A stretch of DNA of 64,000 nucleotides from positions 1 to 64,000 of the IMG/VR virus record IMGVR_UViG_3300032038_000015. One strand, given 5' to 3'. Shown in pieces: positions 24,490-61,557 of the stretch (within the stretch, counting starts at the first letter, position 1; the number at the start of each line of letters is the position of its first letter). The notes beneath the pieces are model-generated. The model was not told where the DNA came from and did not search any database. It worked only from the letters and a program-made list of their open reading frames with translations. Made by a program: the position numbers and the translations under genes. This stretch comes from a virus. Taxonomy: Duplodnaviria > Caudoviricetes.

Positions 24490-27099
24490 ATGAGTGAATA
24501 TGGAATTAAAATAAAGAACATAGAAGCTGCAACATTATATGAATATAATAAAGGATTGCGTGATCATTATGAATATAAGGATGCTTTGTTTGTAAATAGT
24601 TTATTTAAAGATTTTATGTGTGAAAATAAATTAAAAGTCTGGAATAATGAATCTACAAGAGATTTAATATGTCTTGAATTTAATTTTGGTACACGTTCAT
24701 ATGAAGATGAAATAAAACATATTCGTAAAATTGCAAAGTCTGCACGTATTGATTATAAAAAGGCAATAAGCTCTAAAAGTAAAAAACTTATACAGGTTCA
24801 AAAGAATAAAAAGAAAAAAATTATGAGCTTATATAATTTTGCAGTATCTCATAAAACTGAATATTTTTCTTTATCTGCTGATGATATAAGAAAAGAGTTT
24901 TATAACAATGGCGTTAATGTAGAATACATAACAAGAAAGAAAAATGGAGAAATCCTTAAAACTGAAATTATCCATTATAAAATGTTATATAGAAGCCCTG
25001 GAAAAGCAAAAAAAGGAACATGTATGTTTATAAGGAATAAGTTGTATAATAAAGCACTAAATTACCTTAGAATGGGAATAAAACTTCCAAAGCGTAATGC
25101 TGACATTGTAGGAATTAGTGCCTACTCTTCTCTGATATGTAGTGGAATTGTTGGAAAAGTTAAAATCAACCCAAAAAACATTCTTGTTTTGAAAGATGTT
25201 GATAGATATTTAAATACAAATGTTATATCAGTTGAAACTGATAATGAAAAACATTGTATTGCAAAACTTATTAAAAATTATAAATTAAAGAACACTATGT
25301 TTGATGGACAAGCCCTGATTGATTCATCTATTTTTCCAAGTTGGGGACATGGATATATTCTTCTAAGACATCACTTCTGCAAAATGGCTGCGTTCTGTAG
25401 CAATATTCAATTATTTTTCCGTGATTATTTTGGTGACGACTACTATTCTGCTACTGTGGAGGATATGTGGGGTAATAAGCATTATGTAAAAGACATAGAA
25501 TTAATCACAACAGACAATGCTATGAAATGGATAAAATACAAGGTGTCATATGATTATTGGTGCAATAAAGTTTATGAAAATGACTGTATGTTTGGCATTG
25601 TAAAAACAGCACATCCAAGTAAACTTGGCAATGTCCAAAGAATGAGTTATCAAATGGTAAATTCTCTCAATATTGATATTATGGACGAGGTATGTGAAGA
25701 AAGTATTAATTATATAAATAAATTAAAAATAGATAATGGTTTTTTCTTAGAGTATTTAAAGAAAAATATTAACTTTTCGAATGATTATGAAGTATTAATC
25801 GCTCTGTGTGAACAAAATCGTGATTTTATGAGAAGTTCATATTTTAGAGAGCGAAAGAAATCCATTATAATGTCATATGTTTTAAACTTTAAAAGCGGAA
25901 AGATTATTCAAAATGCTGACAATCTTGTAATTGTTGGTTCGCCATATGCAATGCTTTTATATGGTGCTACTGGTAATCCTGATATGGTTGATTTAGATGA
26001 TACATTCACAACAGAAGGATCTGCTATTCAATGTTACACAAGCAGATTTAATGATAATGAATATCTCGCAGAATTTAGAAGTCCTTTCAATGGCAAATAT
26101 AATCTTGGTTATTTGCATAACGTATATGATGAAAGGTTTAAAAAATATTTTAACTTTTGTGACCAAATTATTGCAGTCAATATGAATGGTACAGATTTTC
26201 AAGACCGCAACAATGGGAGTGACATGGACAGTGATAGTATTTATACTACAAATCAACCCAAAATAGTAAATCATGCTAAGTGTTGCTATATCAACTATCC
26301 TACTATCGTAAATAATATTCCTAAAGATTCAAATATATATGACAACACAATGGACGATTTTGCAACTTTGGATAATAAATTAGCTGCATCACAATCTGAT
26401 ATTGGTGAGTCAAGTAATCTGGCTCAACTTGCCCAAACATATGATTGCACATTTAATGAACAAATATATAAAGATTACATTTGTGTACTAAGCGTATTGG
26501 CGCAAATTGCCATAGATTCAGCGAAACGATTATTTGATGTTAATGTAGCATCTGAAATACGAAGAATAAAAAAGGATATGAATGTTGATAAAAACAAGTA
26601 TCCTGCATTTTGGAAAATCATCCGAAGAGATTTTAAAGAGAATAATATTAATTACGATCTCGTGTGTCCAATGAATTATCTATATAATCTTAAACTTGAC
26701 CAGTTCAGGTCAAATCAATCAACTATTCCAATTGAATACTTTTTTAAGAAATTTGAACTCGAAAAAAACAGAAAGACTTGTAAAAAGGTAGAGGAAATTA
26801 TAGAAATGTATATAAACAAATTTTCTTCTATGTATATGTCAGATAACGATGATTCATATTTTCTTTTAAAAATGGATTTTGACAATATGATAAACGATAT
26901 TACAAAAGTTTATGTATCAAAAAATTATATTGGATTATTCAGTTGGTTAATTGATAGAGCCTTTTGCATTTCTCTTGCACAAAAACAAAATCAATATAAA
27001 TTAAAGTCAAAAATTAAAAAAAGACGTTCAATTTTGATAAAAGCTTTATATGATATCAATAGTGCAAATCTACTAAATTGTTTCTCGAATAATTGTTAA
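24490..27099 (+). CDS. yonO: YonO-like single-subunit (double-psi barrel) DNA-dependent RNA polymerase
   Basis: 869 aa; RSP motif and catalytic loop DRNNGSDMDSD (DxDxD); QIAIDSAKR; position at head of late region as in SPbeta. Confidence 0.85.
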   Translation: MSEYGIKIKNIEAATLYEYNKGLRDHYEYKDALFVNSLFKDFMCENKLKVWNNESTRDLICLEFNFGTRSYEDEIKHIRKIAKSARIDYKKAISSKSKKLIQVQKNKKKKIMSLYNFAVSHKTEYFSLSADDIRKEFYNNGVNVEYITRKKNGEILKTEIIHYKMLYRSPGKAKKGTCMFIRNKLYNKALNYLRMGIKLPKRNADIVGISAYSSLICSGIVGKVKINPKNILVLKDVDRYLNTNVISVETDNEKHCIAKLIKNYKLKNTMFDGQALIDSSIFPSWGHGYILLRHHFCKMAAFCSNIQLFFRDYFGDDYYSATVEDMWGNKHYVKDIELITTDNAMKWIKYKVSYDYWCNKVYENDCMFGIVKTAHPSKLGNVQRMSYQMVNSLNIDIMDEVCEESINYINKLKIDNGFFLEYLKKNINFSNDYEVLIALCEQNRDFMRSSYFRERKKSIIMSYVLNFKSGKIIQNADNLVIVGSPYAMLLYGATGNPDMVDLDDTFTTEGSAIQCYTSRFNDNEYLAEFRSPFNGKYNLGYLHNVYDERFKKYFNFCDQIIAVNMNGTDFQDRNNGSDMDSDSIYTTNQPKIVNHAKCCYINYPTIVNNIPKDSNIYDNTMDDFATLDNKLAASQSDIGESSNLAQLAQTYDCTFNEQIYKDYICVLSVLAQIAIDSAKRLFDVNVASEIRRIKKDMNVDKNKYPAFWKIIRRDFKENNINYDLVCPMNYLYNLKLDQFRSNQSTIPIEYFFKKFELEKNRKTCKKVEEIIEMYINKFSSMYMSDNDDSYFLLKMDFDNMINDITKVYVSKNYIGLFSWLIDRAFCISLAQKQNQYKLKSKIKKRRSILIKALYDINSANLLNCFSNNC

Positions 27100-27339
27100 T
27101 TTTTACTCAAAAACGGCAATTTTTAGGGACACCTAAACAAATTTTATCGCTTAAAACCCTTGTCTTTAGGGCATTTTTCACAATTCCGTTAAGTTGCATA
27201 ATGAGGAGAAAGGGTTTATTTATCCAAGTACCTCTCCGCTTTAGATGCAAATGCGGAATAAAAATATGCAACGATCGTTTATATTAAAAAATAAAGCCCT
27301 CTTGATTGAGGGCTGTGCCGAAAGGCTAAAAACAAACAT

Positions 27340-27957
27340 AACAATAAACATTTCACTATGGTTACAATCAACTCAGTGTAGATTGGTTAATCACCATGCT
27401 GAGAATACGTGGATACTGCCAGAAACAATCATTGGGATACTTATGATTGGTTTGGTCTTATATGCTGTGAAGCTTATAAGATAAAAGGGAAACCCTAAAA
27501 TGTAAGCGTATGTACTGAGAATATATGTAGTAAAAGGCTATGTCTTGTCGCTGACGCAATAGAGAGTTGCACTGCAACGCATAATCCCGATGCCTATAAC
27601 TTGGTAACTTATAGGAGTTAAGTAAGGAAATACCACAATAAGTCAGTTTGCTGTGAGTATTCAGAAATGAGTACAATAAGACAAGTTCAATGAGCGAGTA
27701 GTCCAAGGCAATGAAAGTATAGTATAATGCAAGTAAGTAAATATAAAAATACTTAAACGATTTTCTGAATGATGGATGAAAGTTAGGAGTAATCAATCTC
27801 CTATACACATGATGAGACTAATGTAGACTCGTGGGATAAAAAGTTTATAGATGACGGTCTGTAAGCTCAGATTTATCTCTGTATTGGCTGAATATTATTG
27901 CGTATATTTGAGGCAACCCGAAGGGGTGTTTGTGGTCATAGTGAAGTGTTTATTGTT
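27340..27957 (+). ncRNA. Large structured ncRNA, ROOL-like
   Basis: 28-bp terminal helix (27340-27367 with 27930-27957, G-U wobbles only) enclosing many hairpins; directly upstream of a tRNA. Confidence 0.75.
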
Positions 27958-27961
27958 TTTT

Positions 27962-28038
27962 TGGGAATTAGCTCAGTTTGGTTAGAGCGATGGTCTTATA
28001 AACCATGTCTGTCACAAGTTCAAATCTTGTAATCCCGA
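27962..28038 (+). tRNA. tRNA-Ile(UAU)
   Basis: D arm gctc/gagc, anticodon arm atggt-ctTATaa-accat, T arm acaag-ttcaaat-cttgt; one acceptor mismatch, no CCA. Confidence 0.8.
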
Positions 28039-28069
28039 CTACTCTTCCACTGTTGCGTGGAAAATATAA

Positions 28070-28345
28070 TTCAACTACCCACTGCCTTTTAGGCGGTGGG
28101 ATTGTATAGTAGCAATGCTACGGAGCAATCCCAAGTTGAATAGCCTAAGTTCTTCGAGAACTACGTTACCTTGGAATATATAGGTACTTCGGAACGTAAT
28201 ACCTAATTCCGAACACTACGAACTACAATTAAACAGTTCTGTGAGGTAAGAGCAGTGTTGTAGTCATACAAAACCCAAGGATAACATTGGCTAAGGTATG
28301 CAAACCGCTTTTCGGAGCGAGTAATTAAAACCTTTACGGTTTTGG
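28070..28345 (+). ncRNA. IscB omegaRNA (HEARO-like)
   Basis: tcaactaccc...gttgaatagcctaag...ctacgttacc...aacattggctaagg upstream of iscB. Confidence 0.8.
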
Positions 28346-28360
28346 AAAGGAGAATGTGTA

Positions 28361-29599
28361 ATGGTTTACGTACTTAACAAAAACGGACAACCTTTAATGC
28401 CTACGGAAAACCATGCTAAAGTGCGTGTTCTCTTAAAACAAGGCAAAGCAAAGGTGGTAAATAAGTGTCCGTTTACAATACAACTGTTGTATAGTAGCAC
28501 GAACTATACACAAAAAGTAACATTAGGTGTAGATAGCGGAAGTAAACATATCGGTATTTCAGCCACTACAAAAGACAGGGTTCTTTTCGAGTCCGATGTA
28601 GAATTACGAAACGATATAGTGGATTTGCTTTCTACTCGCAGGGAATTACGACGTTCCCGCAGAAATCGCAAACTTCGTTACCGTAAGCCACGGTTCAATA
28701 ATCGTAGACGTAAAGATGGATGGTTAGCACCTTCTGTAAGACAAAAAGTAGATTCGCACCTTACGATGATAGCAAAAGTACATAAGATACTTCCAATATC
28801 AAATATTATAGTAGAGGTAGCATCTTTCGATATACAGAAGATTAAAAATCCCGATATTAACGGCACAGAATACCAAAATGGCGAGCAGTTAGACTTTTGG
28901 AATGTACGTGAGTATGTATTGTTCCGTGACGGTCATACCTGTCAATGTTGCAAAGGTAAGTCTAAGGACAAAATCCTTAATGTACACCATATAGAAAGTC
29001 GTAAGACAGGTGGTGATGCTCCGAATAATCTTATTACGCTATGTGAGACTTGCCATACTGGGTATCACAATGGAACTGTAAAACTTCCTAAAACGATACA
29101 CAGAGGAATGTCTTTCAAGGATGCTACTTTTATGGGTGTCATGCGGTGGGCTTTGTACGAGAAACTAAAAACTATATATCCGAATGTAAGACTTACTTAT
29201 GGATATATCACTAAAAATACTCGTATAGAAAACGGTTTACCGAAAGACCACTACATAGATGCAAGATGTATTAGTGGTAATCCTAATGCTGTTAGCAACG
29301 GAGAAATTTTCTATTACAAGAAAGTCCGTAGCCACAACAGACAGATACATAAGTGCAAAGTCTTAAAAGGCGGTATCAGAAAACGTAATCAAGCTACATA
29401 CTATGTGATGGATTATCGAATGTACGACAGAGTTTCGTATCAAGGTAAGCCTTATATCATATTTGGTCGCAGAAATAGCGGTTTCTTTGATATACGTACC
29501 TTAGACGGTACAAAAGTAAACAAAGGCTCTATTAGTTACAAGAAACTTAGACTAATAGAACCACAAAGTAACTATATAGTAGAAAAGCGCACCGCTTAG
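28361..29599 (+). CDS. iscB: RNA-guided endonuclease IscB
   Basis: PLMP, RuvC-I GVDSG, RRxRR bridge helix, RuvC-II VEVASFD, HNH HHI...NLITLCETCH, RuvC-III HYIDA. Confidence 0.95.
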   Translation: MVYVLNKNGQPLMPTENHAKVRVLLKQGKAKVVNKCPFTIQLLYSSTNYTQKVTLGVDSGSKHIGISATTKDRVLFESDVELRNDIVDLLSTRRELRRSRRNRKLRYRKPRFNNRRRKDGWLAPSVRQKVDSHLTMIAKVHKILPISNIIVEVASFDIQKIKNPDINGTEYQNGEQLDFWNVREYVLFRDGHTCQCCKGKSKDKILNVHHIESRKTGGDAPNNLITLCETCHTGYHNGTVKLPKTIHRGMSFKDATFMGVMRWALYEKLKTIYPNVRLTYGYITKNTRIENGLPKDHYIDARCISGNPNAVSNGEIFYYKKVRSHNRQIHKCKVLKGGIRKRNQATYYVMDYRMYDRVSYQGKPYIIFGRRNSGFFDIRTLDGTKVNKGSISYKKLRLIEPQSNYIVEKRTA

Positions 29600-29691
29600 G
29601 CGGTGTGCGGAAAGCAGGGCGGCGTTCCTCCCATCAGCTAAAGCTAATGGGTTTCCCGCCGAGGTTCAATTTATGAAAGAAGTGAATAAAA

Positions 29692-31763: not shown

Positions 31764-33241
31764 GGTATTCAACAGTTTGATATAACTTATAAGGCTTTCG
31801 ACTGTGTTTCGATTATGTCTTTTTAGATTGAACTGTACTTTCAATCTTCTACTTCAAAATAAAGAGAATATAAAAGTAGGAGGTGAAAATAAAACATGAT
31901 AAAAACAATTCGAGTGATGTTGCTACCAAACAATAAGCAGAAAACTAAATTGTTTCAATATGCTAATACTGCTCGTTTTGCTTATAACTGGGCTTTAGGA
32001 AGAGAAAAAGAAAATTATAAGGCAGGTGGGAATTTTATCTCTGATTGTGATTTAAGAAAAGAATTTACACAGTTAAAGAAAAAAGATGAATATTCTTGGT
32101 TAAATAATATATCTAATAATGTAACAAAACAAGCAATAAAGGATGCTTGTAATGCATATAAGAGATTTTTTAAAGGATATTCAAAATTTCCGAAGTTTAA
32201 AAGTCGTAAATGTTCCACTCCGTCATTTTATCAAGATAATGTAAAAATCCAATTCACTGATACACATGTCAAGATAGAAGGGTTCTCTTCCTCTAAAAAG
32301 AAAAATAAACAGAAATTGAATTGGATTAGATTGGCAGAGCATGGACGCATTCCTACTGACCATAAATACACTAATCCTCGTATCAAATATGATGGGATAA
32401 ACTGGTATATTACTATTGGTATTGAATGTGAAGATTCTGCTACTCTTCCATCAAATGAAGGTATTGGAATTGATCTAGGAATTAAGGATTTGGCAATATG
32501 TTCTGATGGCAACAAATATCAGAATATAAATAAAACTCAAAAAGTTAAAAAGTTAGAAAAAAGAAAACGCAAGTTGCAGCGTTCTATATCAAGAAAATAT
32601 GAGAAAAACAGGAAAGGGGGAAGTTACTGTAAAACAAGTAACATTATAAAAAGTGAAAAAGAACTTTTAAAATTAAATCATAGACTAACGAATATTCGTC
32701 AGAACTATTTACATCAAACAACATCTGAGATTATAAAACGAGAACCAAGTTTTATTTGTATTGAAGATTTGAATGTAAAAGGAATGATGAAGAACAGACA
32801 TTTATCTAAAGCTGTTCAGCAACAATGTTTTGGAGAATTTAGACGACAAATTGAATATAAATCAGCATGGAATAATATTTCAGTAATCATTGCGGACAGA
32901 TTCTTTCCGAGTTCTAAATTGTGTAGTTGTTGTGGAAGCATCAAAAAAGATTTAAAGTTGTCAGATCGTATTTACATGTGTAAATGTGGAAATATTATTG
33001 ACAGAGATTATCAAGCAGCTTTAAATCTAAAAAGATATGGAGAAAATGTGATGAAACAATCTGTAGCATAACACTTTCAAGTTAATACAGATATGTACGG
33101 ATACGTTAGTTCGGAATTTACGCCTATGGAGTGTACAAGAACCTGTTAGTAGATATTGTAAAAATACAAATCAAAAGCATACACTTTGAAGTAGGAATGA
33201 AACATAAAAGTTTATAACTTTTTATAAGTTTTCAGTAACGG
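31764..33241 (+). mobile_element. IS607-family element lacking tnpA
   Basis: GG cores at 31764-65 and 33240-41; right ~170 nt nearly identical to 61381-61550. Confidence 0.8.
31896..33071 (+). CDS. tnpB: RNA-guided endonuclease TnpB
   Basis: GIDLG, IEDL, CSCC/CKCG zinc finger, DRDYQAALN. Confidence 0.95.
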   Translation: MIKTIRVMLLPNNKQKTKLFQYANTARFAYNWALGREKENYKAGGNFISDCDLRKEFTQLKKKDEYSWLNNISNNVTKQAIKDACNAYKRFFKGYSKFPKFKSRKCSTPSFYQDNVKIQFTDTHVKIEGFSSSKKKNKQKLNWIRLAEHGRIPTDHKYTNPRIKYDGINWYITIGIECEDSATLPSNEGIGIDLGIKDLAICSDGNKYQNINKTQKVKKLEKRKRKLQRSISRKYEKNRKGGSYCKTSNIIKSEKELLKLNHRLTNIRQNYLHQTTSEIIKREPSFICIEDLNVKGMMKNRHLSKAVQQQCFGEFRRQIEYKSAWNNISVIIADRFFPSSKLCSCCGSIKKDLKLSDRIYMCKCGNIIDRDYQAALNLKRYGENVMKQSVA

Positions 33242-34932: not shown

Positions 34933-35220
34933 ATGGATGAAATTATTTTAAAAGAAGAAAATGGTCAAGTATTGGCAAGTAGTCGAGATGTTGCTGAAAA
35001 GTTTGGAAAGAAACATGCTGAAGTTCTTTATTCTATTGAAGGACGTGTAGCATGGGACAAGACAAAGGGTAAAAATGTTGTAAAACATAATGGTTTGTTA
35101 ATGGGTGGTCATGACCAACTATTAAAAATGTTTATAAAAAATGAGTATATAGATTCTAAAGGTCGTACTCAATATGAATATTTAATGAACCGTGATGGTT
35201 TTTCTCTTCTTGTCAAGTGA
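34933..35220 (+). CDS. Rha-family phage regulatory protein (truncated)
   Basis: SSRDVAEKFGKKH...YLMNRDGFSLLV. Confidence 0.8.
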   Translation: MDEIILKEENGQVLASSRDVAEKFGKKHAEVLYSIEGRVAWDKTKGKNVVKHNGLLMGGHDQLLKMFIKNEYIDSKGRTQYEYLMNRDGFSLLVK

Positions 35221-36239
35221 CGAAACATTTTGGAACATTACAGAATCTATTAAAAAAAGCTGGTATTCAATCAACTACTAATCCAAACTTATTCAATAGA
35301 GAGCAATTATCGGATGAAGAAATGTTGGAAAATTATAAGAAGTTTGTTGAAGAACATTTGAAAACACATATGTTTTTACCAACAAATGATGATTTAGATA
35401 AATGCCAATCAATTCAGTGTACATCAGTATATATCAGTAGATTTGGTTCGTTTAATAATGTGAATAAACTTATTGGATATGAGGGATACAATAATAAGGT
35501 ATTAGAAGAAGACATGATTTTCAAATATAAGAGGGCTTGTAAGGAATATGGGACTGTGTTATCTAGCAGAGAGATAACAAAAATATCCAAAGCTACAAAT
35601 AATTATATTTATTCAACAGAAGCATATCTTAATCATTTTGGTACGTTACATAACTTACAAGAATTATGTGGTTTTGATAAAACAATTCCAGGTAGAGGTG
35701 CAACGAGAGAAGAACTTATTGAGAAATTACAATGGCTAGGTGATGTTTTAGGTCGTAGACCACTTGAATCTGACTTAAAATTATATAAAAGAATGCCATC
35801 TGGTAATGCATATTTTAAGGAGTTCGGAAGTTTCAGAAAAGCACTTAATGAAGCAGGATTTAAAAAACAAAAAATATATGAAACAAAAAACGGTACAAAA
35901 TGTCGTTCTACGTATGAGTTAAAATTAGCTCAAGTCTTAGAATCTTATAATATATCATTTGAAAACGAAGTTCTTTATAAAGATGTAATTCCCAATTTTA
36001 AGCGAAAATATAGATTTGATTTTGTCGTGGAGTTAAACAATCGAAATTATTATATTGAATTATTTGGTATTGAAGGTAACGAGTTATATGAAAAGCGAAA
36101 GCAGGAAAAGATTCAAATTTGCGAAGAAAACAATATTCCATTAATTCAATTATATCAAAGTGATATATATTCAAAAACTAATCAAGAAATTTATGAAACA
36201 TTATTTAATTATATAGAAGATTTGAAAGAAGTGGCGTAA
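35217..36239 (+). CDS. Homing endonuclease (HNH-associated repeats plus PD-(D/E)xK-like C-terminus), probably N-truncated
   Basis: Repeated Y..xFGS/T units; RSTYE...RFDF...YIELFG. Confidence 0.75.
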   Translation: MTKHFGTLQNLLKKAGIQSTTNPNLFNREQLSDEEMLENYKKFVEEHLKTHMFLPTNDDLDKCQSIQCTSVYISRFGSFNNVNKLIGYEGYNNKVLEEDMIFKYKRACKEYGTVLSSREITKISKATNNYIYSTEAYLNHFGTLHNLQELCGFDKTIPGRGATREELIEKLQWLGDVLGRRPLESDLKLYKRMPSGNAYFKEFGSFRKALNEAGFKKQKIYETKNGTKCRSTYELKLAQVLESYNISFENEVLYKDVIPNFKRKYRFDFVVELNNRNYYIELFGIEGNELYEKRKQEKIQICEENNIPLIQLYQSDIYSKTNQEIYETLFNYIEDLKEVA

Positions 36240-36277: not shown

Positions 36278-37309
36278 GTGATTGTATTGGACGGAAAGAT
36301 AGCAAATAGAACTGATGAGATTACGGAAGATGAATGGTTGGAAATAAATAAAACTAATAGAGATATGGTTCAAGACTATCTCGACAACCAATCCGATCTT
36401 TCTGTAAAAACTCGACCAGCGTATCGTTCGGGTTTGAGAATATTTTTCAAATATGTACATGATTATCTTGGGGACAAGGATTTTACACAGATTAAAAAGA
36501 AAGAATTTCAGAAATACCTGAATTGGCTAACGAATCGTGGCTTGTCAGATTCTGCTATTAAATTTAAAAAATCATGTGTAAGTGCATTTTGTAATTATGT
36601 AATGATGATGTATGAGGATGAGATGCCAACCTTCAGGAATTTCACCATCGGGTTAAAAGTGGTAAAAACTGGATATGTACATGAAAAAGTACCTCTTACG
36701 CCAGATGAATATGTTGCATTATGCGAAGAATTAGAAAGACGTGAAGAATGGCAAAAACTTGCATATGTTGTATTTTCTTATAGTACAGGATGTCGAAGAG
36801 CTGAAGCTAGACAGCTTCTTAAAGAAGTTGTTGATTATCCTGCCAAAGAAAAGAAAATTAAAATTCTCGATGAAGATGGCAAAGAGGTAGAAGCTATTTC
36901 AAGACAATATCAAACACATACCATAAGATGTAAGGGTGCTTCGATTCAAGGTAAACAAAGAAAGCTTAAATTTGGGGAAGATGCAATGCATTGGCTTAAA
37001 AAATGGATTGAAGTACGTGGAGATGATGATTGCCCTTATATGTTTGTTGTAAAAACTAAAGATGGTTCAAAGGTGCGACAGATTGGATATAGTGCATTCA
37101 ATGATTGGTGTATAAATGAATTTTCTGAAATTGTTGGTAGGCGTAGTACGCCACATAACTTCCGACGGAGTAGAGCGACCAATCTTGTATGTTATGACCA
37201 TCGTGCATTGGAAACAGCACAGAAACTTTTGGGACACGAATCTTCCGAAACCACTCAGATGTATGTGATTCGTGAAGACACTGAGGATGCCGATGAAGCT
37301 TTCGTCTAA
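36278..37309 (+). CDS. Tyrosine recombinase/integrase
   Basis: STGCRRAE, KG, HNFRR, LGH..SETTQMY catalytic set. Confidence 0.92.
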   Translation: MIVLDGKIANRTDEITEDEWLEINKTNRDMVQDYLDNQSDLSVKTRPAYRSGLRIFFKYVHDYLGDKDFTQIKKKEFQKYLNWLTNRGLSDSAIKFKKSCVSAFCNYVMMMYEDEMPTFRNFTIGLKVVKTGYVHEKVPLTPDEYVALCEELERREEWQKLAYVVFSYSTGCRRAEARQLLKEVVDYPAKEKKIKILDEDGKEVEAISRQYQTHTIRCKGASIQGKQRKLKFGEDAMHWLKKWIEVRGDDDCPYMFVVKTKDGSKVRQIGYSAFNDWCINEFSEIVGRRSTPHNFRRSRATNLVCYDHRALETAQKLLGHESSETTQMYVIREDTEDADEAFV

Positions 37310-39032: not shown

Positions 39033-40194
39033 ATGGGTTTGATTACTAACGAAGTTGAAATAACATTGAACAATAGAACTATAAGATGGTATGAAAATAA
39101 AGGATATGAAATTCCTAAGTATTATAATAAAAAAACGTTGTAAATATATTATAAAAAGCGGAACAAAAATCAAGGTGAAAGTTGAAGACTTAACAAATGG
39201 AAGTAACGCCATTGTAAATTGTATATGTGATGAATGCAAAACTAAAACAGAAATGACATGGTATACATATAGAAAAATTAATCATAATGGCAAAACATAT
39301 TGTAAGCCTTGTGCTTTAAAAATTTTTAATAGTCGAGAAAACCATCCATTATGGAATTTTAACAAAACAGATAAAGAAAGAGAAATAGGAAGAAAGTATC
39401 CAGAATATCATATATTTACTAAAAATGTAATGGCTAGAGATAAATATATTTGTCAATGTTGTGGTGAAAGGGCAACGGATGTACATCATTTATATGGATA
39501 TGCCAATTATCCAGAATACAGATTAGACCAACAATATGCCTTAGCTCTTTGTTCAAAATGTCATAACGCATTTCATAATTGGCATTTAATGAAATATGGT
39601 GCAAAACAAAAAGGCAATAATACTAAAGAGCAATTTGATGAGTGGATTGGACAAAGTAAAATAATAGATGGACAATATGATGGAGATCTTCCAGAGTCCA
39701 GATGGGCGTATTGTATAACTGATAATAAAATAATAGAAAATATACCAGAATACGCAAAAAAGAACAATTTAAATTCTTCTAATATATACAGATGTTGTAA
39801 TAAAAAACAGCCTATGTATAAAAAGAAAATATACATATGGTATGATATATACAAACAAATGAGCAATAACCAAATTCAACAATATATAAATAATTGTATG
39901 CATAATACTAGAATAAAAAGTGTTGTATGTATCAACTATAAATTATTATTTGATTCTGCTAAAGATGCTCAATTGTATTTTGGAGTATGGAATAGTTTTA
40001 TAATAAAATGTTGTAAAGGAATTTTTGAATATGCTGGTATATTAGAAACAGGTGAAAAATTAATATGGAAATATTCTTTCGATATAAAAGATATTTCCAA
40101 ATACACATATATAAATAGAAATGAATGTAAGAAGCTTGCTGAAATTCGTGCATTGAATAATACTTTTGAAGGAACTACAGAATATACTCTGTAA
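39033..40194 (+). pseudogene. HNH homing endonuclease with NUMOD-like repeats, frameshifted at A7 run 39129-39135
   Basis: MGLITNEVE...YENKGYEIP frame joins the CQCCG..VHH...LCSKCH frame. Confidence 0.7.
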
Positions 40195-43525: not shown

Positions 43526-45256
43526 ATGGAACAAAATTATTCAAGAAAAAGATTGACAGATGAAGAATACAAACAAAGAATTTTTAAATTGTATGGTAAT
43601 GATATAACTGTATTAGAACCATATGTAAATCAAAGAACAAAAATTTTACATAGGTGCAATATTCATAACTATGAATGGAAAGCACGTACTCGCCAAATGG
43701 CAGAAGGACACAATGGATGTAAATATTGTTCGTCAGAAAAAAGAAGCCAAGGATTAACACAAAATCTTGATAAAGTAAAAGAAAAATTAAGAAAAACATG
43801 TGGTGATGAATTTACATTAAATGATGATAATGAATATTTAGGGCATAATGAAAAAATGTATTTTACCCACCATTTACCAGATGGTAGTTCCCATACATTA
43901 TATTCTAAACCAGATAGAATTTATAAATGTAAATGTCCTGTATGTTCTGGAATGCAAGTATGTGTTGGGTTAAATGATATTTGGACTACTAATCCAGATT
44001 TGGGAAATTTATTAGCAAATCCTGAAGATGGTTTTAAATATATGCAAAATAGTAATAAACATACAGATTTTAAATGTCCAACATGCGGATATATTTGTAA
44101 AGACAAATCTATTAATCAAGTAAATAGAGATATGGATGTAAGATGTCCTGTTTGTAAGGATGGTATATCATATCCAAATAAGTTGATATTCAATTCACTT
44201 TTACAAATAAAAGATAAGTTAGATTTTTTGGAAAGAGAATATCGACCAAAATGGTGTAAATTTGAATTAAAAGGTAAAACTCGTACAGGTATATATGATA
44301 TATATTTTGGAATAAATAACAAACAATACATAGTTGAGATGGACGGAGGTTTTCACGAAAAACTTCATAGCAAAGTAAAACAATATACTTTAGATGATAT
44401 AAAATATATTGATAGTATGAAAGATAAATTAGCAATCAATCATGGAATTGAAATGATAAGAATTGATTGCTCGTATGATTACCATGATAGATACATATAC
44501 ATTCTTAATAACATTCTAAATTCTAATCTTACCAAAATTCTTCCGTTAGAATCCATTAATTTTGATGAAGCAAATATAAAGTCGCAAAAATCATTATTGG
44601 TTGAAGCATGTGATTTATGGAATAAAGGATACACAGCACATGAAATTATGTCAGAATTAAACATCGGTAAATGGTTAGTACCTTCTTATTTGAAGCAAGG
44701 TCAAAAATATGGCTTATGTGCCAATTATTCTGCACAAAATAGTAGTATAAGATCTTCTGGTACAAAAGTTACATGTGTCAATACTGGCATTTCATATTCT
44801 ACTCTTACAGAACCAGGTAAACTGTATAATATTTGTGATAAAGGGATTTTAGATTGTTGTCGTGGAAATGATTTTTCTGCTGGAAAAGACTTAAATACTG
44901 GTGAGAAATTATTTTGGATGTATACCGATGATTATAATAAATTAAGTAAAAAGGAAATTATACACTATCTCATAGATAAGAAAGTAAAAAGTTATACAGA
45001 AAATATTTCTGGCAAAGCGGTGTATTGTACAACAACAGATGAAATATTTGATAGTATCATGGATGCTGAAAGAGCTTATGATGGTAATCAATGTGGAATT
45101 AGAAAATGTTGTAGAGGAGAAATGAATACAAGTGGTTCTCTACAAGATGGGACAAGATTAAAATGGATGTTCCTAAGTGATTATGTTGAAAAGAACAATA
45201 TGACTATGGAAGAGTTTGTAACGAAACGTTACTACTCTTCTTTTTTATTGGAATAA
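43526..45256 (+). CDS. Homing endonuclease-like protein (zinc ribbons, Vsr-like EMDG..H nuclease, NUMOD-like repeats)
   Basis: Multiple CxxC; YDIYF...IVEMDGGFH. Confidence 0.75.
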   Translation: MEQNYSRKRLTDEEYKQRIFKLYGNDITVLEPYVNQRTKILHRCNIHNYEWKARTRQMAEGHNGCKYCSSEKRSQGLTQNLDKVKEKLRKTCGDEFTLNDDNEYLGHNEKMYFTHHLPDGSSHTLYSKPDRIYKCKCPVCSGMQVCVGLNDIWTTNPDLGNLLANPEDGFKYMQNSNKHTDFKCPTCGYICKDKSINQVNRDMDVRCPVCKDGISYPNKLIFNSLLQIKDKLDFLEREYRPKWCKFELKGKTRTGIYDIYFGINNKQYIVEMDGGFHEKLHSKVKQYTLDDIKYIDSMKDKLAINHGIEMIRIDCSYDYHDRYIYILNNILNSNLTKILPLESINFDEANIKSQKSLLVEACDLWNKGYTAHEIMSELNIGKWLVPSYLKQGQKYGLCANYSAQNSSIRSSGTKVTCVNTGISYSTLTEPGKLYNICDKGILDCCRGNDFSAGKDLNTGEKLFWMYTDDYNKLSKKEIIHYLIDKKVKSYTENISGKAVYCTTTDEIFDSIMDAERAYDGNQCGIRKCCRGEMNTSGSLQDGTRLKWMFLSDYVEKNNMTMEEFVTKRYYSSFLLE

Positions 45257-46329: not shown

Positions 46330-48090
46330 ATGGCTACAAGTAATAAAACAAACGCTCAGATTGAACAAGATAGAACTGCACAAATTATGAACATAGTTGC
46401 AGAACGTGCAGGATTTTACCGTGAAAATTTAGACATTTTTTGTAGGGATTACCTCCAAATAACCAACTTAAAATGGTTTCAAAAAATACTTTTATGGGCT
46501 ATGGATAAACATGATAATACACTTCTACTGGCTTGTAGAGGATTGGGAAAAACTTATATTTGCGCTTTGTTCGCAGTTTGTAGGGCGATCCTGTACCCAG
46601 GGGAACAGATTCTTTCAGTATCGGCAACCTTTAAGCAATCCAAAAATTTAATTCAGAAAATAACTGATGATTTTATGTTGAAATCGCCTTTGCTTAGAAG
46701 CGAAATTTTAAAATACAGTACAGGACAAAATGATTGTTATATTCAATTTAAGTCTGGTTCTATTATTAAAGCAATTACTGCTACAGAATCCAGTCGTGGA
46801 TTTCGCTCACATATTATACTTGTGGATGAAAGTCGGCTTATTCCACCAAATGTAGTATCTTCTATTCTTAGACCTATGAATGCCACTCCAAGACAACCAG
46901 GATATATGAAAGACCCACAGTATGCTTCTCTCGCAGAAATGCCAAAGGAGGTGTACCTTACCAGTAGTTGGTACGCCATGTCAGATTTATACTCACAAGC
47001 TAAGTCTTATGCGGCTAACATGCTAGATCCAAATTTAAGCTACTTCATAGTAGACTTGCCGTATCAAGTGAGTATACGAGAAGGACTTTTAATGCGTCAG
47101 CAGATAATGAACGAAATGACAGAAGCAACATTTTCAGACATTATCTTTATGATGGAAAGAGAGGGAAAATTCTATGGAAGTGCCGCTGATGCACTTTTCG
47201 ATTACAAAGTTTTGAATGAAAGACGAATACTTCAAGACTGTCTGTTTCCACTTGAATATTATCGAGTCAATTCACTTAAAATTCCAGAAAAGAAAAAGGA
47301 CGAAATCAGAATATTATCAATAGATATTGCATTGATGGGTTCAAAGAAAAGAGATAACGATGCAACTTGTATAACAATACATTCTGCTACTCCTACTTCT
47401 TCTAATGATTACATGGATAATATAGTATATGTTGAATCTCAAGAAGGTCTACTTGCAGAAGATTTGGGATTATTGATTTTAAGAGAATTTTATCAATATG
47501 ACTGTGATTATATTGCGATTGATGGTTCTGGTGTCGGACAACCTATAGTAGATTATTTGATATATTCGGATAGATATGATCCAGTTTATAATGTCACATA
47601 TCCTTGTCTTAACTGTGCTAATAATACTGAAATATCAGATAGATGTAAAGTAAAAACTGCCCCAAAGGTTATTTATGTTATTAAAGCAAATGCAAAATCA
47701 AATAATGATATGTATTTGGCACTTAGAGCAGGATTTCAAAATGGATATATTAATATGCTTGCTAGTGATATTAACATCGAAGAACATTTAAGTAAAATAC
47801 GTGGATATAGTAAATTATCTGCAAATCAAAAAGCGTTAATGTTATTACCATATTTACAAACAACATTGATGATAAATGAGTTAATAAATTTACAGTGTGA
47901 TTCATCTGGTGTTCTTATAAAAGTAAAGGAAAGAACTGGAATGAGAAAGGATAGAGTCTCAAGTTGCATGTATGGATACAACATCTGTCAGATTTTATCT
48001 GCTAAAAACAAACCAAAAAATAATAATACTTTAGATCTCATCAACAAACTTCCAATCCGTCAAGGTAAGCGATTTTCAATGTTTAATTAA
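46330..48090 (+). CDS. Terminase large subunit
   Basis: CRGLGKT Walker A, LVDE Walker B, SIDIA and RKDR nuclease motifs. Confidence 0.92.
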   Translation: MATSNKTNAQIEQDRTAQIMNIVAERAGFYRENLDIFCRDYLQITNLKWFQKILLWAMDKHDNTLLLACRGLGKTYICALFAVCRAILYPGEQILSVSATFKQSKNLIQKITDDFMLKSPLLRSEILKYSTGQNDCYIQFKSGSIIKAITATESSRGFRSHIILVDESRLIPPNVVSSILRPMNATPRQPGYMKDPQYASLAEMPKEVYLTSSWYAMSDLYSQAKSYAANMLDPNLSYFIVDLPYQVSIREGLLMRQQIMNEMTEATFSDIIFMMEREGKFYGSAADALFDYKVLNERRILQDCLFPLEYYRVNSLKIPEKKKDEIRILSIDIALMGSKKRDNDATCITIHSATPTSSNDYMDNIVYVESQEGLLAEDLGLLILREFYQYDCDYIAIDGSGVGQPIVDYLIYSDRYDPVYNVTYPCLNCANNTEISDRCKVKTAPKVIYVIKANAKSNNDMYLALRAGFQNGYINMLASDINIEEHLSKIRGYSKLSANQKALMLLPYLQTTLMINELINLQCDSSGVLIKVKERTGMRKDRVSSCMYGYNICQILSAKNKPKNNNTLDLINKLPIRQGKRFSMFN

Positions 48091-48110: not shown

Positions 48111-49715
48111 ATGCCAAGAACAAAGAAAGCGGATGCTAATGCACCTGCTACTACAAATACAACTAAGAAGACGAACTCAACGTCCTCTTCTATTTATTCA
48201 AAACAACCTACGGCTGCTGAGATGAAAGAATTTTATGAAAAAAATAAACGTAGGATTGAAAATTTTGATTCAGCGAATGAAGCTTTTACTAACTTTAGAG
48301 ATACTTCAAAATCAACAACCTACACTACTATTAGTAACTTTAATAAAGAAGACCTTAGAAGTTATTTACAAAATATTACTTCTAACGAGGTCAATTTACG
48401 AAACCTGTCAAGATATCTCTATTATCGTTCTCAGGTATATTTCAGACTTATTGCATATAATGCCAACATGTTCTGTTTGGATGCAAGAACTGTAATTCCT
48501 GAATATGATTTGGTTGAAGATAATGATAAAGATGCAGTGAAAAAATCATATAATGACACACTAAAAGTTCTTGACAAGATGAACTTACAGTATGAATTTC
48601 TTAAAGCATATATGACATGTTTTAGAGAAGATGTATTTTATGGTTGCTATTATTTTAATCCAGAATCAGACGGGAAAACACCATTCTTTATTCTTCCACT
48701 TCCAGCAGATTATTGTAGAATTTCTGGTGTGTATACAGATACAGGTGACTTCGCATTCACAATGAATATGGATTATTTTAAAAGAAACAAAGACTTACTG
48801 GATCTTTGGGGTGAACCGTTTGTTTCTATGTATAATAAGTCACAGCAAAGCGGAGAAAGTAAATGGCAACCAATCGGAGAACAAGGTGTCTGTTTGAAAT
48901 TCCATGCTGAAGACTGGGAGACTATCGTTCCCGTGTTTAGCGGATTATTAAATTCATTAATAAACTTATTGGATCTTGAAGATATTCAAAGCATTGCAGA
49001 CCAACAGGAAATATACAAAATGATTTGGATGGAACTTGAAACATTATCTGGCGCAGATGACGTAAATGAATGGAAAGTTGATCCAGACTTAGTATTACCT
49101 TATTGGCAAAGAATGGTAAATGAAGCTTTGCCTGATTATACTTCTGCTGCTATTATTCCTGGAAAAATCAATCAGATTAGTTTTGATAGTGATAAGGCAA
49201 CAGATACAAATAAAGTAGAAAATGCTACAAAAACAGTTCTAAATACTTCTGGCGGTGCTCAAATTTTAAATTCTAGTTCTATCTCAGGATCTACGGCATT
49301 TAACGCTGCGATTAGAGCCGATACAGAGTTCGCTATTTCTATGCTTTTACCTCAAACGCAAGCTATTGTCAATAGAATTATATCTTATTATGTTGATAAT
49401 CCAAGTTTTGTTAAATTTATCGAAATATCTGTTTATACAAAAGATGCTTATAAGGATAGTATTCTTAAAGATAATACATACGGTCTTGCACCAAAATTAT
49501 TGGTAAATAGTTTAAATGGTTTCTCAGAAAGAGAAACGCTATCTCTTCATTTCTTGGAAAATGAATGTTTAAATCTCAATTTTGTTCCAGTTCAAAGTTC
49601 ACATACAACATCAAATACTGGTGATAATGAGGGAGTTAAACCTACTCTTACTGACACTGAAATTTCAGATGAGGGCGAAGCTAGTCGTGATAAAAAAGAC
49701 AAAGCTAAAGGCTAA
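48111..49715 (+). CDS. Portal protein
   Basis: 534 aa directly after terminase; LRNLSRYLY motif. Confidence 0.8.
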   Translation: MPRTKKADANAPATTNTTKKTNSTSSSIYSKQPTAAEMKEFYEKNKRRIENFDSANEAFTNFRDTSKSTTYTTISNFNKEDLRSYLQNITSNEVNLRNLSRYLYYRSQVYFRLIAYNANMFCLDARTVIPEYDLVEDNDKDAVKKSYNDTLKVLDKMNLQYEFLKAYMTCFREDVFYGCYYFNPESDGKTPFFILPLPADYCRISGVYTDTGDFAFTMNMDYFKRNKDLLDLWGEPFVSMYNKSQQSGESKWQPIGEQGVCLKFHAEDWETIVPVFSGLLNSLINLLDLEDIQSIADQQEIYKMIWMELETLSGADDVNEWKVDPDLVLPYWQRMVNEALPDYTSAAIIPGKINQISFDSDKATDTNKVENATKTVLNTSGGAQILNSSSISGSTAFNAAIRADTEFAISMLLPQTQAIVNRIISYYVDNPSFVKFIEISVYTKDAYKDSILKDNTYGLAPKLLVNSLNGFSERETLSLHFLENECLNLNFVPVQSSHTTSNTGDNEGVKPTLTDTEISDEGEASRDKKDKAKG

Positions 49716-59588: not shown

Positions 59589-60188
59589 ATGAGTAAATAC
59601 TATTCTATCAATGAGTTTTCAAAAATTTTAGGAGTTTCAGCACAAACATTACGGAATTGGGATAAGAATGGAAAACTTCATCCACATCATACTTCTAGCA
59701 ATGGATATAGATATTATTCTCACGAACAATTAAATCAAGTTATGAATATAAAACCAAATCTTGATAGGATTACCATTGGTTATTGCAGAGTTTCAAGTAA
59801 TAAACAAAAAGACGATTTGGAATGTCAAATAGAGAATATGAAATTGTACTTAACTGCACAAGGAAAGCCTTTTGAGATTATTAGTGATATCGGTTCTGGA
59901 ATCAATTATAAGAAAAAAGGATTAAAAGAATTGATTAAACGAATATCTCAGAACAAGGTCGAAAAGGTTGTAGTTTTATATAAAGATAGATTATTGAGAT
60001 TTGGTTTTGAATTGGTTGAATATATCGCAAGTTTATATAATTGTGATATAGAAATAATTGACAATACTGAAAAATCAGAACAACAAGAACTTGTTGAAGA
60101 TTTAGTACAAATAATAACTGTATTCAGTTGTAAATTACAAGGAAAACGAGCAAATAAAGCAAGAAAACTTGTTAAAGAACTTATATAA
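59589..60188 (+). CDS. tnpA: IS607 serine transposase TnpA (MerR HTH plus resolvase)
   Basis: GVSAQTLRNWD, YCRVSS, DRLLRFGF. Confidence 0.93.
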   Translation: MSKYYSINEFSKILGVSAQTLRNWDKNGKLHPHHTSSNGYRYYSHEQLNQVMNIKPNLDRITIGYCRVSSNKQKDDLECQIENMKLYLTAQGKPFEIISDIGSGINYKKKGLKELIKRISQNKVEKVVVLYKDRLLRFGFELVEYIASLYNCDIEIIDNTEKSEQQELVEDLVQIITVFSCKLQGKRANKARKLVKELI

Positions 60189-60204
60189 GAAGGTGGTGAA
60201 GATA

Positions 60205-61380
60205 ATGATAAAAACAATTCGAGTAATGTTACTCTCAAATAACAAACAAAAGACTAAACTATTCCAATATGCTAATACTGCTCGATTTGCTTATAATTGG
60301 GCATTAGGTAGAGAACAAGAGAATTATAAAAATGGTGAAAAATTTATATCTGACGGAGATTTACGAAAAGAGTTTACACAATTAAAGAAAGCTGATGAAT
60401 ATACTTGGCTGAATAATGTTTCTAACAATGTAACCAAACAAGCCATCAAGGATGCTTGTGAAGCATATAGAGATTTCTTCAAAGGATATACGAAATTCCC
60501 TCGTTTCAAAAGTAAGAAGTATTCAGTTCCAAAATTTTATCAGGATAATGTAAAAATTCAATTTACAGACACTCATGTAAAAGTTGAAGGATTTGCTACT
60601 TCTAAAAAGAAGAATAAGCAAAAATTAAATTGGATAAGACTTGCTGAGCATGGTAGAATCCCTACAGATTGTAAATATTGCAATCCTCGTTTCAAGTATG
60701 ATGGATTAAACTGGTGGATAACAGTTGGAATTGAATACGAAGATTACACTACTCTTCCATCAAATGAAGGTGTTGGAATTGATTTAGGAATCAAAGACCT
60801 AGCAATATGTTCTAATGGAAACACATATAAGAACATAAATAAGTCTCAAAAGGTAAAGAAATTAGAGAAAAGAAAATGCAAGTTGCAGCGTTCTATATCA
60901 AGAAAATATGAGAAAAACAGGAAAGGGGGAAGTTACTGTAAAACAAGTAACATTATAAAAAGTGAAAAAGAACTTTTAAAATTAAATCACAGACTAACGA
61001 ATATTCGTCAGAATTATTTACATCAGACTACTACTGAGATAGTGAAAACCAAGCCATCTTATATAGTATTAGAAGATTTGAATGTAAAAGGAATGATGAA
61101 GAACAGACATTTATCTAAAGCTGTTCAGCAACAATGTTTTGGAGAATTTAGACGACAAATTGAATATAAATCTGCGTGGAATAATATTAAAGTAATTATT
61201 GCAGACAGATTCTTTCCAAGTTCTAAATTATGTAGTTGTTGTGGGAATATTAAGAAAGATTTGAAGTTATCAGACCGTATTTACAAATGTGAGTGTGGAA
61301 ATGTAATTGACAGAGATTATCAAGCAGCTTTAAATCTAAAAAGATATGGAGAAAATGTGATGAAACAATCTGTAGCATAA
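60205..61380 (+). CDS. tnpB: RNA-guided endonuclease TnpB
   Basis: GIDLG, LEDL, zinc finger, DRD. Confidence 0.95.
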   Translation: MIKTIRVMLLSNNKQKTKLFQYANTARFAYNWALGREQENYKNGEKFISDGDLRKEFTQLKKADEYTWLNNVSNNVTKQAIKDACEAYRDFFKGYTKFPRFKSKKYSVPKFYQDNVKIQFTDTHVKVEGFATSKKKNKQKLNWIRLAEHGRIPTDCKYCNPRFKYDGLNWWITVGIEYEDYTTLPSNEGVGIDLGIKDLAICSNGNTYKNINKSQKVKKLEKRKCKLQRSISRKYEKNRKGGSYCKTSNIIKSEKELLKLNHRLTNIRQNYLHQTTTEIVKTKPSYIVLEDLNVKGMMKNRHLSKAVQQQCFGEFRRQIEYKSAWNNIKVIIADRFFPSSKLCSCCGNIKKDLKLSDRIYKCECGNVIDRDYQAALNLKRYGENVMKQSVA

Positions 61381-61557
61381 CACTTTCAAGTTAATACAGA
61401 TATGTACGGATACGTTAGTTCGGAATTTACGCCTATGGAGTGTACAAGAACCTGTTAGTAGATATTGTAGAAATACAAATCAAAAGCATACACTTTGAAG
61501 TAGGAATGAAACATAAAAGTTTATAACTTTTTATAAGTTTTCAGTAACGGTAGTGCA

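Follow-up and report, generated by a model that had tools for sequence, protein, structure and literature searches.

Genomic context of the locus

The DNA analysed here, hereafter the window, is the initial 64-kb part of an IMG/VR virus record that has a length of 131,991 bases and is estimated to be 79% complete. The record is an SPbeta-like temperate phage from gut metagenomes. The locus of interest lies between a gene for a predicted single-subunit RNA polymerase and a long block of genes oriented in the same direction, and it is made up of a non-coding leader, a large structured RNA of the ROOL family and a tRNA gene. The features to which the text refers are the following:

24490..27099, plus strand, gene for a predicted 869-aa YonO-family two-barrel single-subunit RNA polymerase (hhalign, AF2, Foldseek)
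27100..27331, plus strand, non-coding leader from the polymerase gene to the ROOL segment, about 90% identical in ROOL-less relatives
27340..27367, plus strand, 5' strand of the closing helix P1, 28 bp with 27930-27957
27348..27946, plus strand, ROOL RNA, covariance-model match to Rfam RF03087, model positions 1-574
27602..27606, plus strand, kissing loop UGGUA of the cctataa/ttatagg hairpin, pairing with 27631-27635
27631..27635, plus strand, junction UACCA, partner of the 27602-27606 loop by complementarity and covariation
27707..27762, plus strand, variable A/U-rich linker, aligned to an unstructured stretch of the Rfam model
27763..27784, plus strand, most conserved ROOL block, TTCTGAATGATGGATGAAAGTT, invariant columns in 17 ROOLs, used as search motif
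27930..27957, plus strand, 3' strand of the closing helix P1, 28 bp with 27340-27367
27962..28039, plus strand, tRNA-Ile, anticodon UAU (ARAGORN; Rfam tRNA, 55.4 bits)
46330-48090, plus strand, terminase gene
48111-49715, plus strand, portal gene, product 27-29% identical to the portals of SPbeta-like phages

Downstream of the ROOL RNA, the same strand encodes an SbcD/YonJ-type exonuclease, homing endonucleases, a tyrosine recombinase, two more tRNAs, the terminase, the portal, structural proteins and an endolysin. Three ORFs for HNH or HNH-repeat homing-endonuclease-like proteins (35217-36239, 39091-40194 and 43526-45256) are located between the exonuclease and the terminase, and the tyrosine recombinase (36278-37309) is found in the same region, which is dense in selfish elements. 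There are also two TnpB-type ORFs (OrfB_IS605 / Cas12f1-like TNB; phrog_506), at 31896-33197 and 60169-61506, and each has a RAGATH-18 RNA (RF03064, about 70 bits) behind it. These pairs represent further guide-RNA elements of the IS200/IS605 family in the same phage.

Just 3' of the tRNA there is a block of about 1.6 kb (28070-29674) that contains a HEARO RNA (RF02033, 121 bits, 28070-28305) and an RRXRR+HNH ORF of the IscB type (28361-29599). This IscB/HEARO block was absent from all the related ROOL-bearing contigs checked. In the contigs L010 and L021, the equivalent of window position 28069 joins directly to that of about 29675, and the gap of L070-L079 is shorter by 1.6 kb. The comparison reveals the occupied and the empty site of a mobile element, whose left edge falls at position 1 of the HEARO model.

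Identification of a full-length ROOL RNA

ROOL has been a catalogued RNA family since 2017, with a mean size of 581 nt (Weinberg et al., 2017; PMC5737381). Its members are present on plasmids and chromosomes too (PMC12990946), and those from env-120, E. faecalis, Firmicutes CAG:227 and L. salivarius have been studied by cryo-EM (PMC12286853, PMC12990946, PMC12515178). The studied members build hollow multi-copy RNA cages.

When the window was compared with Rfam 15, the ROOL model (RF03087) matched with a score of 303.8 bits, the gathering score being 99.1, and an E-value of 7e-69. The match is untruncated, covering model positions 1-574 of 574, and it was recovered identically when the whole virus record was scanned. 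Among 4227 Rfam families at gathering thresholds, ROOL was the only one that matched 27340-27957, and the Rfam scan gave no match to GOLLD (RF02032) at the gathering threshold anywhere in the window. A preliminary description of this stretch, made from the sequence alone, had assigned it to ROOL and had suggested an Infernal search against the Rfam ROOL and GOLLD models as a check. The assignment was right, since the Rfam match runs from end to end at three times the gathering score, ROOL being matched and GOLLD not. The 27340-27957 region of the plus strand is a ROOL RNA gene of about 618 nt with full-length family membership; it measures 599 nt if delimited by Rfam and 618 nt if the P1 helix is counted in full.

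According to the Rfam alignment, the conserved blocks are all present in the window copy, i.e., the GGGAUAC loop, CAAUAGA, AGUAG, UUCUGAAUGA..UGAAAGUU, GCUCAGA, CUGAAUA and the closing GNRA-type hairpin. These blocks correspond to invariant columns across the 17 ROOLs analyzed below. The window copy shares with the family its helices, conserved blocks, variable linker, kissing-loop complementarity and phage location beside a tRNA. It differs in being 45-64% identical to the other collected ROOLs, which is normal for the family, and in having a P1 of 28 bp that surpasses the Rfam helix by 8 to 11 nt, which is true of most homologues examined. Apart from its place behind a phage RNA polymerase gene and the tRNA that abuts it, this copy is an ordinary ROOL. 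GOLLD (RF02032) is also a large ornate phage RNA linked to tRNAs that likewise forms a multi-copy cage (PMC12286853), but its sequence and fold are unrelated to those of ROOL.

Closing helix, predicted fold and overlapping ORFs

The closing helix P1 consists of 28 consecutive base pairs, in which the sole non-Watson-Crick pairs are U27351-G27946, G27361-U27936, U27362-G27935 and U27363-G27934. These G-U pairs would be A-C mismatches on the minus strand, and thus P1 is specific to the plus-strand RNA. P1 is present in the MFE fold of 27340-27957, and the fold energy of this 618-nt stretch is -178.3 kcal/mol, compared with -139.0 +/- 5.0 for shuffles (z = -7.8). The terminal duplex itself has a z of -5.7 against shuffled 3' arms. 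In most members of the family P1 is long, the terminal duplex being predicted at about 22-39 pairs (28 of them make up the contiguous helix of the window copy), with a wholly different sequence, and P1 usually reaches 5-11 nt past the Rfam model ends in the homologues. The closed 5'/3' helix with four G-U deviations had already been noticed in the preliminary description, and we find it in place with 28 bp. The internal hairpins listed there (aatcat/atgatt, tcttata/tataaga, agggaaaccct, cctata/tatagg, taggag/ctccta and cccgaaggg) all correspond to helices of the Rfam ROOL model.

The only ORFs that overlap the stretch are two mechanical ones, one at 27245-27484 (plus strand, 79 aa) and the other at 27458-27808 (minus strand, 116 aa, GTG start). 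Neither of them has a Pfam or PHROGs match at E <= 0.01. A protein-coding reading of these ORFs was rejected on this basis, in agreement with the earlier view that the stretch holds no credible ORF.

Compensatory changes and distribution of ROOL RNAs

The conserved-block motif TTCTGAATGA....TGAAAGTT, used as a search query, yielded 25 phage contigs, and 21 of them hold a ROOL above the Rfam cut-off, nearly all among same-strand tRNA genes. The phage and tRNA-linked context pointed out in the preliminary description therefore fits ROOL. We have aligned 17 full-length ROOLs in a structure-blind manner, which share 45-64% identity with the window copy, one near-identical relative excepted. The structure tested was the Rfam model transferred to window coordinates plus the outer P1, comprising 165 pairs, 148 of which are canonical in the window copy.

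Across the 17 ROOLs, 128 of the 165 pairs change on both sides, and 69.8% of the cells are paired, compared with 54.6% in shuffles. The covariation score was 0.467, against 0.204 in shuffles and at most 0.197 when the partners were slid. None of 500 shuffles reached any of the observed pairing or covariation measures. Of the 29 P1 columns, 27 changed on both sides. The RNAalifold consensus of the same ROOLs contains 80 pairs, 71 of them with compensatory change. In two helices, the 27785-27803 hairpin and the lower part of the 27833-27880 hairpin, the transferred Rfam structure is off by one with respect to the covarying RNAalifold register, and thus the counts over 165 pairs are conservative. 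The ROOL structure is maintained by compensatory change and is under selection.

Recent changes were analyzed in ten ROOL copies, 93-98% identical, taken from gut metagenome contigs. Thirteen pairs are variable among these near-identical copies and 12 of them are canonical in every copy, including a double change from G27385-C27395 to A-U. At the thirteenth pair, the window has a C-A mismatch and seven other copies have U-A. The 3' strand of P1 carries four substitutions in close relatives (at the partners of 27351, 27359, 27361 and 27362), all of which keep the pairing by toggling between G-U and A-U. Indels are confined to the linker (27716-27751) and to a variable hairpin (27820-27827), and most of the unpaired changes are likewise located in 27716-27751 and 27820-27827. 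Since the substitutions in the module preserve the structure, they point to ongoing purifying selection on the folded RNA. The claim of selection at the RNA level, which the preliminary description had derived from the G-U pairs of the closing helix, is hence supported both by covariation among the 17 ROOLs and by the structure-keeping changes in close copies.

Nothing matched when the ROOL stretch was compared by blastn with 50,697 deposited phage genomes, and no cultured relative was found in this way. A ROOL motif scan of bacterial genomes gave 28 loci, four of them real by nhmmer, which belong to a Clostridia MAG, a Lachnospiraceae MAG, Eubacterium ruminantium and a Ruminococcus MAG. By our own arithmetic, about 17 chance matches of the 18-base motif are expected in the bacterial collection, and therefore these loci give only a weak hint of a Clostridia host.

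Elements related to cage assembly

The env-120 ROOL is a D4 octamer held together by bridges B1-B7, and bridge B4, formed by J6/8 with L8, is conserved and covarying (Kretsch et al., PMC12286853). The solved cages are octamers in three members and a hexamer in L. salivarius (PMC12990946). In the window copy, the fourth pair of the UGGUA/UACCA interaction covaries across the 17 ROOLs (UA in 6, AU in 3, CG in 4 and GU in 2). When mapped by its position in the secondary structure, not on a 3D model, this interaction appears to correspond to the inter-subunit bridge B4 of the env-120 cage. The window ROOL is under selection for a conserved inter-subunit contact, the structural role being that described for env-120 (PMC12286853).

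The internal linker of ROOL is disordered and non-conserved (PMC12286853), and by analogy the variable linker at 27707-27762 is its putative counterpart, i.e., the disordered loop inside the cage. We have also looked for the self-complementary loop of the half-shell bridge B6 (L18). The long 3' hairpin ends in the loop UGACGG, in which no 4-nt palindrome was found.

The adjoining tRNA

Only four nucleotides, TTTT (27958-27961), separate P1 from the tRNA-Ile(UAU) gene, which confirms that a tRNA starts 4 nt downstream, at 27962, as the preliminary description had it. The tRNA-Ile(UAU) accompanies ROOL in related phages at 93-98% identity. When the near-identical ROOL segments of the window and of L070, L071, L077 and L079 were compared, the adjoining tRNA was either Ile(UAU) or Pro(UGG); the 5' and 3' parts of these two variants are common and the middle (about 27988-28017) is replaced.

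This arrangement is found well beyond the close relatives, as same-strand tRNAs flank ROOL in nearly all of the 21 other phage loci. In six loci of different ROOL lineages the tRNA starts 3-16 nt past the Rfam 3' end, so that it abuts the extended P1. The presence of tRNAs flanking or abutting ROOL on the same strand supports the co-transcription of both RNAs, already suggested by Weinberg et al. (PMC5737381), and makes RNase P the likely source of the ROOL 3' end. According to the summary of the work of Ling et al. given in PMC12515178, cage assembly is undisturbed by engineered fusions to a 3' tRNA precursor. A separate observation concerns the other end of the RNA in the L008 locus, where the 5' flank of ROOL (L008:7131-7160) has the sequence GGTTCGAATCCC, which resembles a tRNA T-arm and abuts the ROOL 5' end; no Rfam tRNA was called there.

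YonO-type polymerase gene and possible position in the late operon

The ORF upstream of the leader encodes a protein of 869 aa with no Pfam match. Comparison by hhalign of a 52-sequence alignment of its family with the SPbeta YonO protein gave a probability of 99.0% and an E-value of 4.6e-18 over 520 columns. In this comparison, the DMDSD sequence at residues 578-582 is aligned to the catalytic DNDGD motif of YonO, and D578, D580 and D582 are invariant in the 52 homologues. The AF2 model has a pLDDT of 92.6, and its top Foldseek matches are the two-barrel polymerases RDR2/QDE-1 (E 1e-12 to 1e-10) and the RNAPs of phage P32 and crAss-like phages. Judged by profile comparison and the predicted structure, this protein is a YonO-family polymerase. 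The family is very common in human-gut assemblies, where more than 3,000 matches were obtained at E <= 1e-10. In these assemblies the polymerase gene is present on contigs as long as 337 kb, and candidate variants that are more distant are on contigs as long as 789 kb.

The leader that follows (27100-27331) has no Rfam match at E <= 1 and no conserved ORF; a small ORF that starts at the ATG of CATAATG is broken by indels in the relatives, as judged by eye. It contains TAATGAGGAGAAAG...CCTCTCC and CCGC...GCGG hairpins. A G+C hairpin is located at 27295-27314, with a T-run on the minus strand only. The sole promoter-like site is a weak sigma-70-like one at 27175-27202 (TTTTCA-16-CATAAT), which occurs at chance frequency. 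Parts of the leader recur, by eye, upstream of the diverged ROOL of L016. The leader could hold a late promoter.

According to Forrest et al. (2017; PMC5467207), the late operon that depends on YonO in SPbeta has its start upstream of yonK/yonJ and of an unannotated ncRNA. The gene order in this phage is yonO, yonN (HU), a gene-free gap of 1.68 kb, yonK and yonJ, and then the terminase and the portal. The window has the same order, with the polymerase gene, an HU-like gene in some relatives, a non-coding gap, small genes, the YonJ-type exonuclease, the terminase and the portal. However, a ROOL was sought in the yonN-yonK gap and none was found, and the window leader has nothing in common with this gap beyond 9-mers, the leader motif being absent from it. 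The SPbeta gap (L081:9154-10834) holds only a DUF3800-VIII RNA motif (RF03075, 47.5 bits), on the late-gene strand. Because the gap lacks ROOL, the analogy with SPbeta is positional only.

The preliminary description placed the RNA at the head of the late operon, and this holds in part. The YonO-type polymerase gene lies directly upstream and, by synteny, the position is equivalent to the start of the SPbeta late operon. The other half fared less well, since the terminase is 18 kb downstream, and the IscB element and the exonuclease gene come before it. It is plausible that ROOL heads the late operon, judging from synteny and from the experiments on SPbeta, a distant relative.

The placement of ROOL behind this type of gene is recurrent. 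A YonO-like gene is found directly upstream of ROOL, on the same strand, in five more phage loci (L010, L012, L016, L022 and L025; in L025 it is 1.6 kb from ROOL) and probably in a sixth one, L003. The ROOLs of L012, L016, L022 and L025 are only 52-64% identical to the window copy. A small ORF, HU-like by eye, follows the YonO-like gene and precedes ROOL in L022 and L012, as yonN follows yonO in SPbeta. The ROOL papers PMC5737381, PMC12286853, PMC12990946 and PMC12515178 make no mention of a ROOL placed immediately behind a YonO-type polymerase gene.

Exchange of the ROOL segment among related phages

Fifteen contigs whose polymerase is 87-98% identical to that of the window have no ROOL in the gap. 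In these relatives the gap is occupied by different non-coding sequence followed by a tRNA (Lys, Asn or others), and the homology with the window, which spans the polymerase gene and the leader, ends at 27331. The opposite situation is observed in L010, whose polymerase gene is 66-74% identical, yet which matches the window with 97.6% identity from 27334 through the tRNA. Together, these two limits place the left junction 6-8 nt before P1. On the right side, the homology resumes inside the next gene, at about 30058, in three of the four contigs compared. The leader is about 90% conserved whatever the cargo.

Since fifteen close relatives carry other cargo at this site, ROOL and its tRNA belong to an exchangeable segment, and the existence of close relatives without ROOL indicates that it is accessory and dispensable for this type of phage. 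One of the alternative cargos is a non-coding stretch of about 345 nt that precedes a tRNA-Lys at the ROOL site in L055 (8843-9189) and also in L057-L059, with a similar layout in L060-L065. The L055 stretch has a fold z of -4.4 against shuffles and a strong terminator-like hairpin at its end, and no Rfam match at gathering thresholds.

Proposed mechanism and alternative explanations

Taken as a whole and with its inferred steps, the explanation that we consider very probable is that of a ROOL gene in an SPbeta-like phage whose RNA is co-transcribed late with a tRNA, processed and assembled into a cage. By analogy with SPbeta, ROOL would be made together with the tRNA as the first element of a YonO-driven late transcript. 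Its 3' end would be set by the RNase P cut at the tRNA 5' end, and its 5' end would result from cleavage at the long P1 or below it, with RNase III as a candidate nuclease. Once released, the RNA would fold and, with no need for protein, build a hollow homo-oligomeric cage like those solved for other ROOLs. We infer the co-transcription with the tRNA, the RNase P processing of the 3' end and the self-assembly of the cage with fair confidence. We have moderate confidence, with about even chances, that the YonO-type polymerase transcribes ROOL late, starting in the conserved leader or close to it. Our best guess for the role of ROOL is that of an abundant RNA particle of late infection, which may be tied to the tRNA supply of the phage or to translation.

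It is next to impossible that the stretch codes for a protein or for an RNA of another kind, be it GOLLD, a group I or II intron or a so far undescribed class. Nothing but its size and the two overlapping mechanical ORFs speaks for it, and these ORFs match no family, ROOL is the sole Rfam match in the stretch at gathering thresholds among 4227 families, and the four G-U pairs together with the compensatory changes show selection on RNA. It is quite improbable that ROOL acts mainly in cis as a leader of the late transcript, either as a platform for processing or stability or in antitermination for the YonO-type polymerase, the cage being incidental. The location of ROOL between the polymerase gene with its conserved leader and a long co-directional gene block would suit such a function, as would the non-coding RNA that also heads the YonO operon of SPbeta and the YonO-like gene that precedes ROOL in several divergent phages. 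However, most of the ROOLs found are part of tRNA arrays, and the flanks available for them contain no YonO-like gene, other ROOLs reside on plasmids and chromosomes (PMC12990946), and the inter-subunit contacts are conserved (covarying kissing loop; PMC12286853). Moreover, there are relatives with the same leader and downstream genes that do not carry ROOL, and thus the late genes do not need it.

The exchange data bring up a further alternative, namely that ROOL and its tRNA are passenger cargo of little or no benefit, spread by recombination at a hot spot behind the polymerase gene. The sharp left junction (27331-27334), the 97.6% identity of the module in L010 despite a polymerase gene that is 66-74% identical, the other cargo found at the site in 15 relatives and the presence of IscB and TnpB elements and homing endonucleases in the region are all in line with this explanation. 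Nevertheless, we regard it as improbable. The substitutions preserve the structure, which shows that purifying selection still acts on the folded RNA; the module contains no recombinase or transposase; and the homologous flanks, with the leader at the left end and the phrog_9079 gene (from about 30058) at the right end, explain the exchange.

Significance of the locus

Returning to the cage-forming RNA co-transcribed with its tRNA, a more specific version can be formulated, which we consider rather unlikely. In some SPbeta-like gut phages, ROOL might be the first late product of the YonO-type polymerase and a natural ROOL-tRNA precursor, whose cage would carry or handle the tRNA next to it, Ile-UAU here and Pro-UGG in sister phages. 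Rather than being a free-standing RNA, ROOL would in that case serve late in infection to store, protect or deliver tRNA.

The additions made here to the knowledge of the ROOL family are modest, i.e., the recurrent placement of ROOL behind a YonO-type polymerase gene and a clean natural series of presence and absence. The locus is a well-defined natural test case for ROOL, with a defined polymerase gene upstream and a tRNA abutting its 3' end. The near-identical sister phages that carry other cargo are natural deletion controls, and other copies differ in tRNA identity only.
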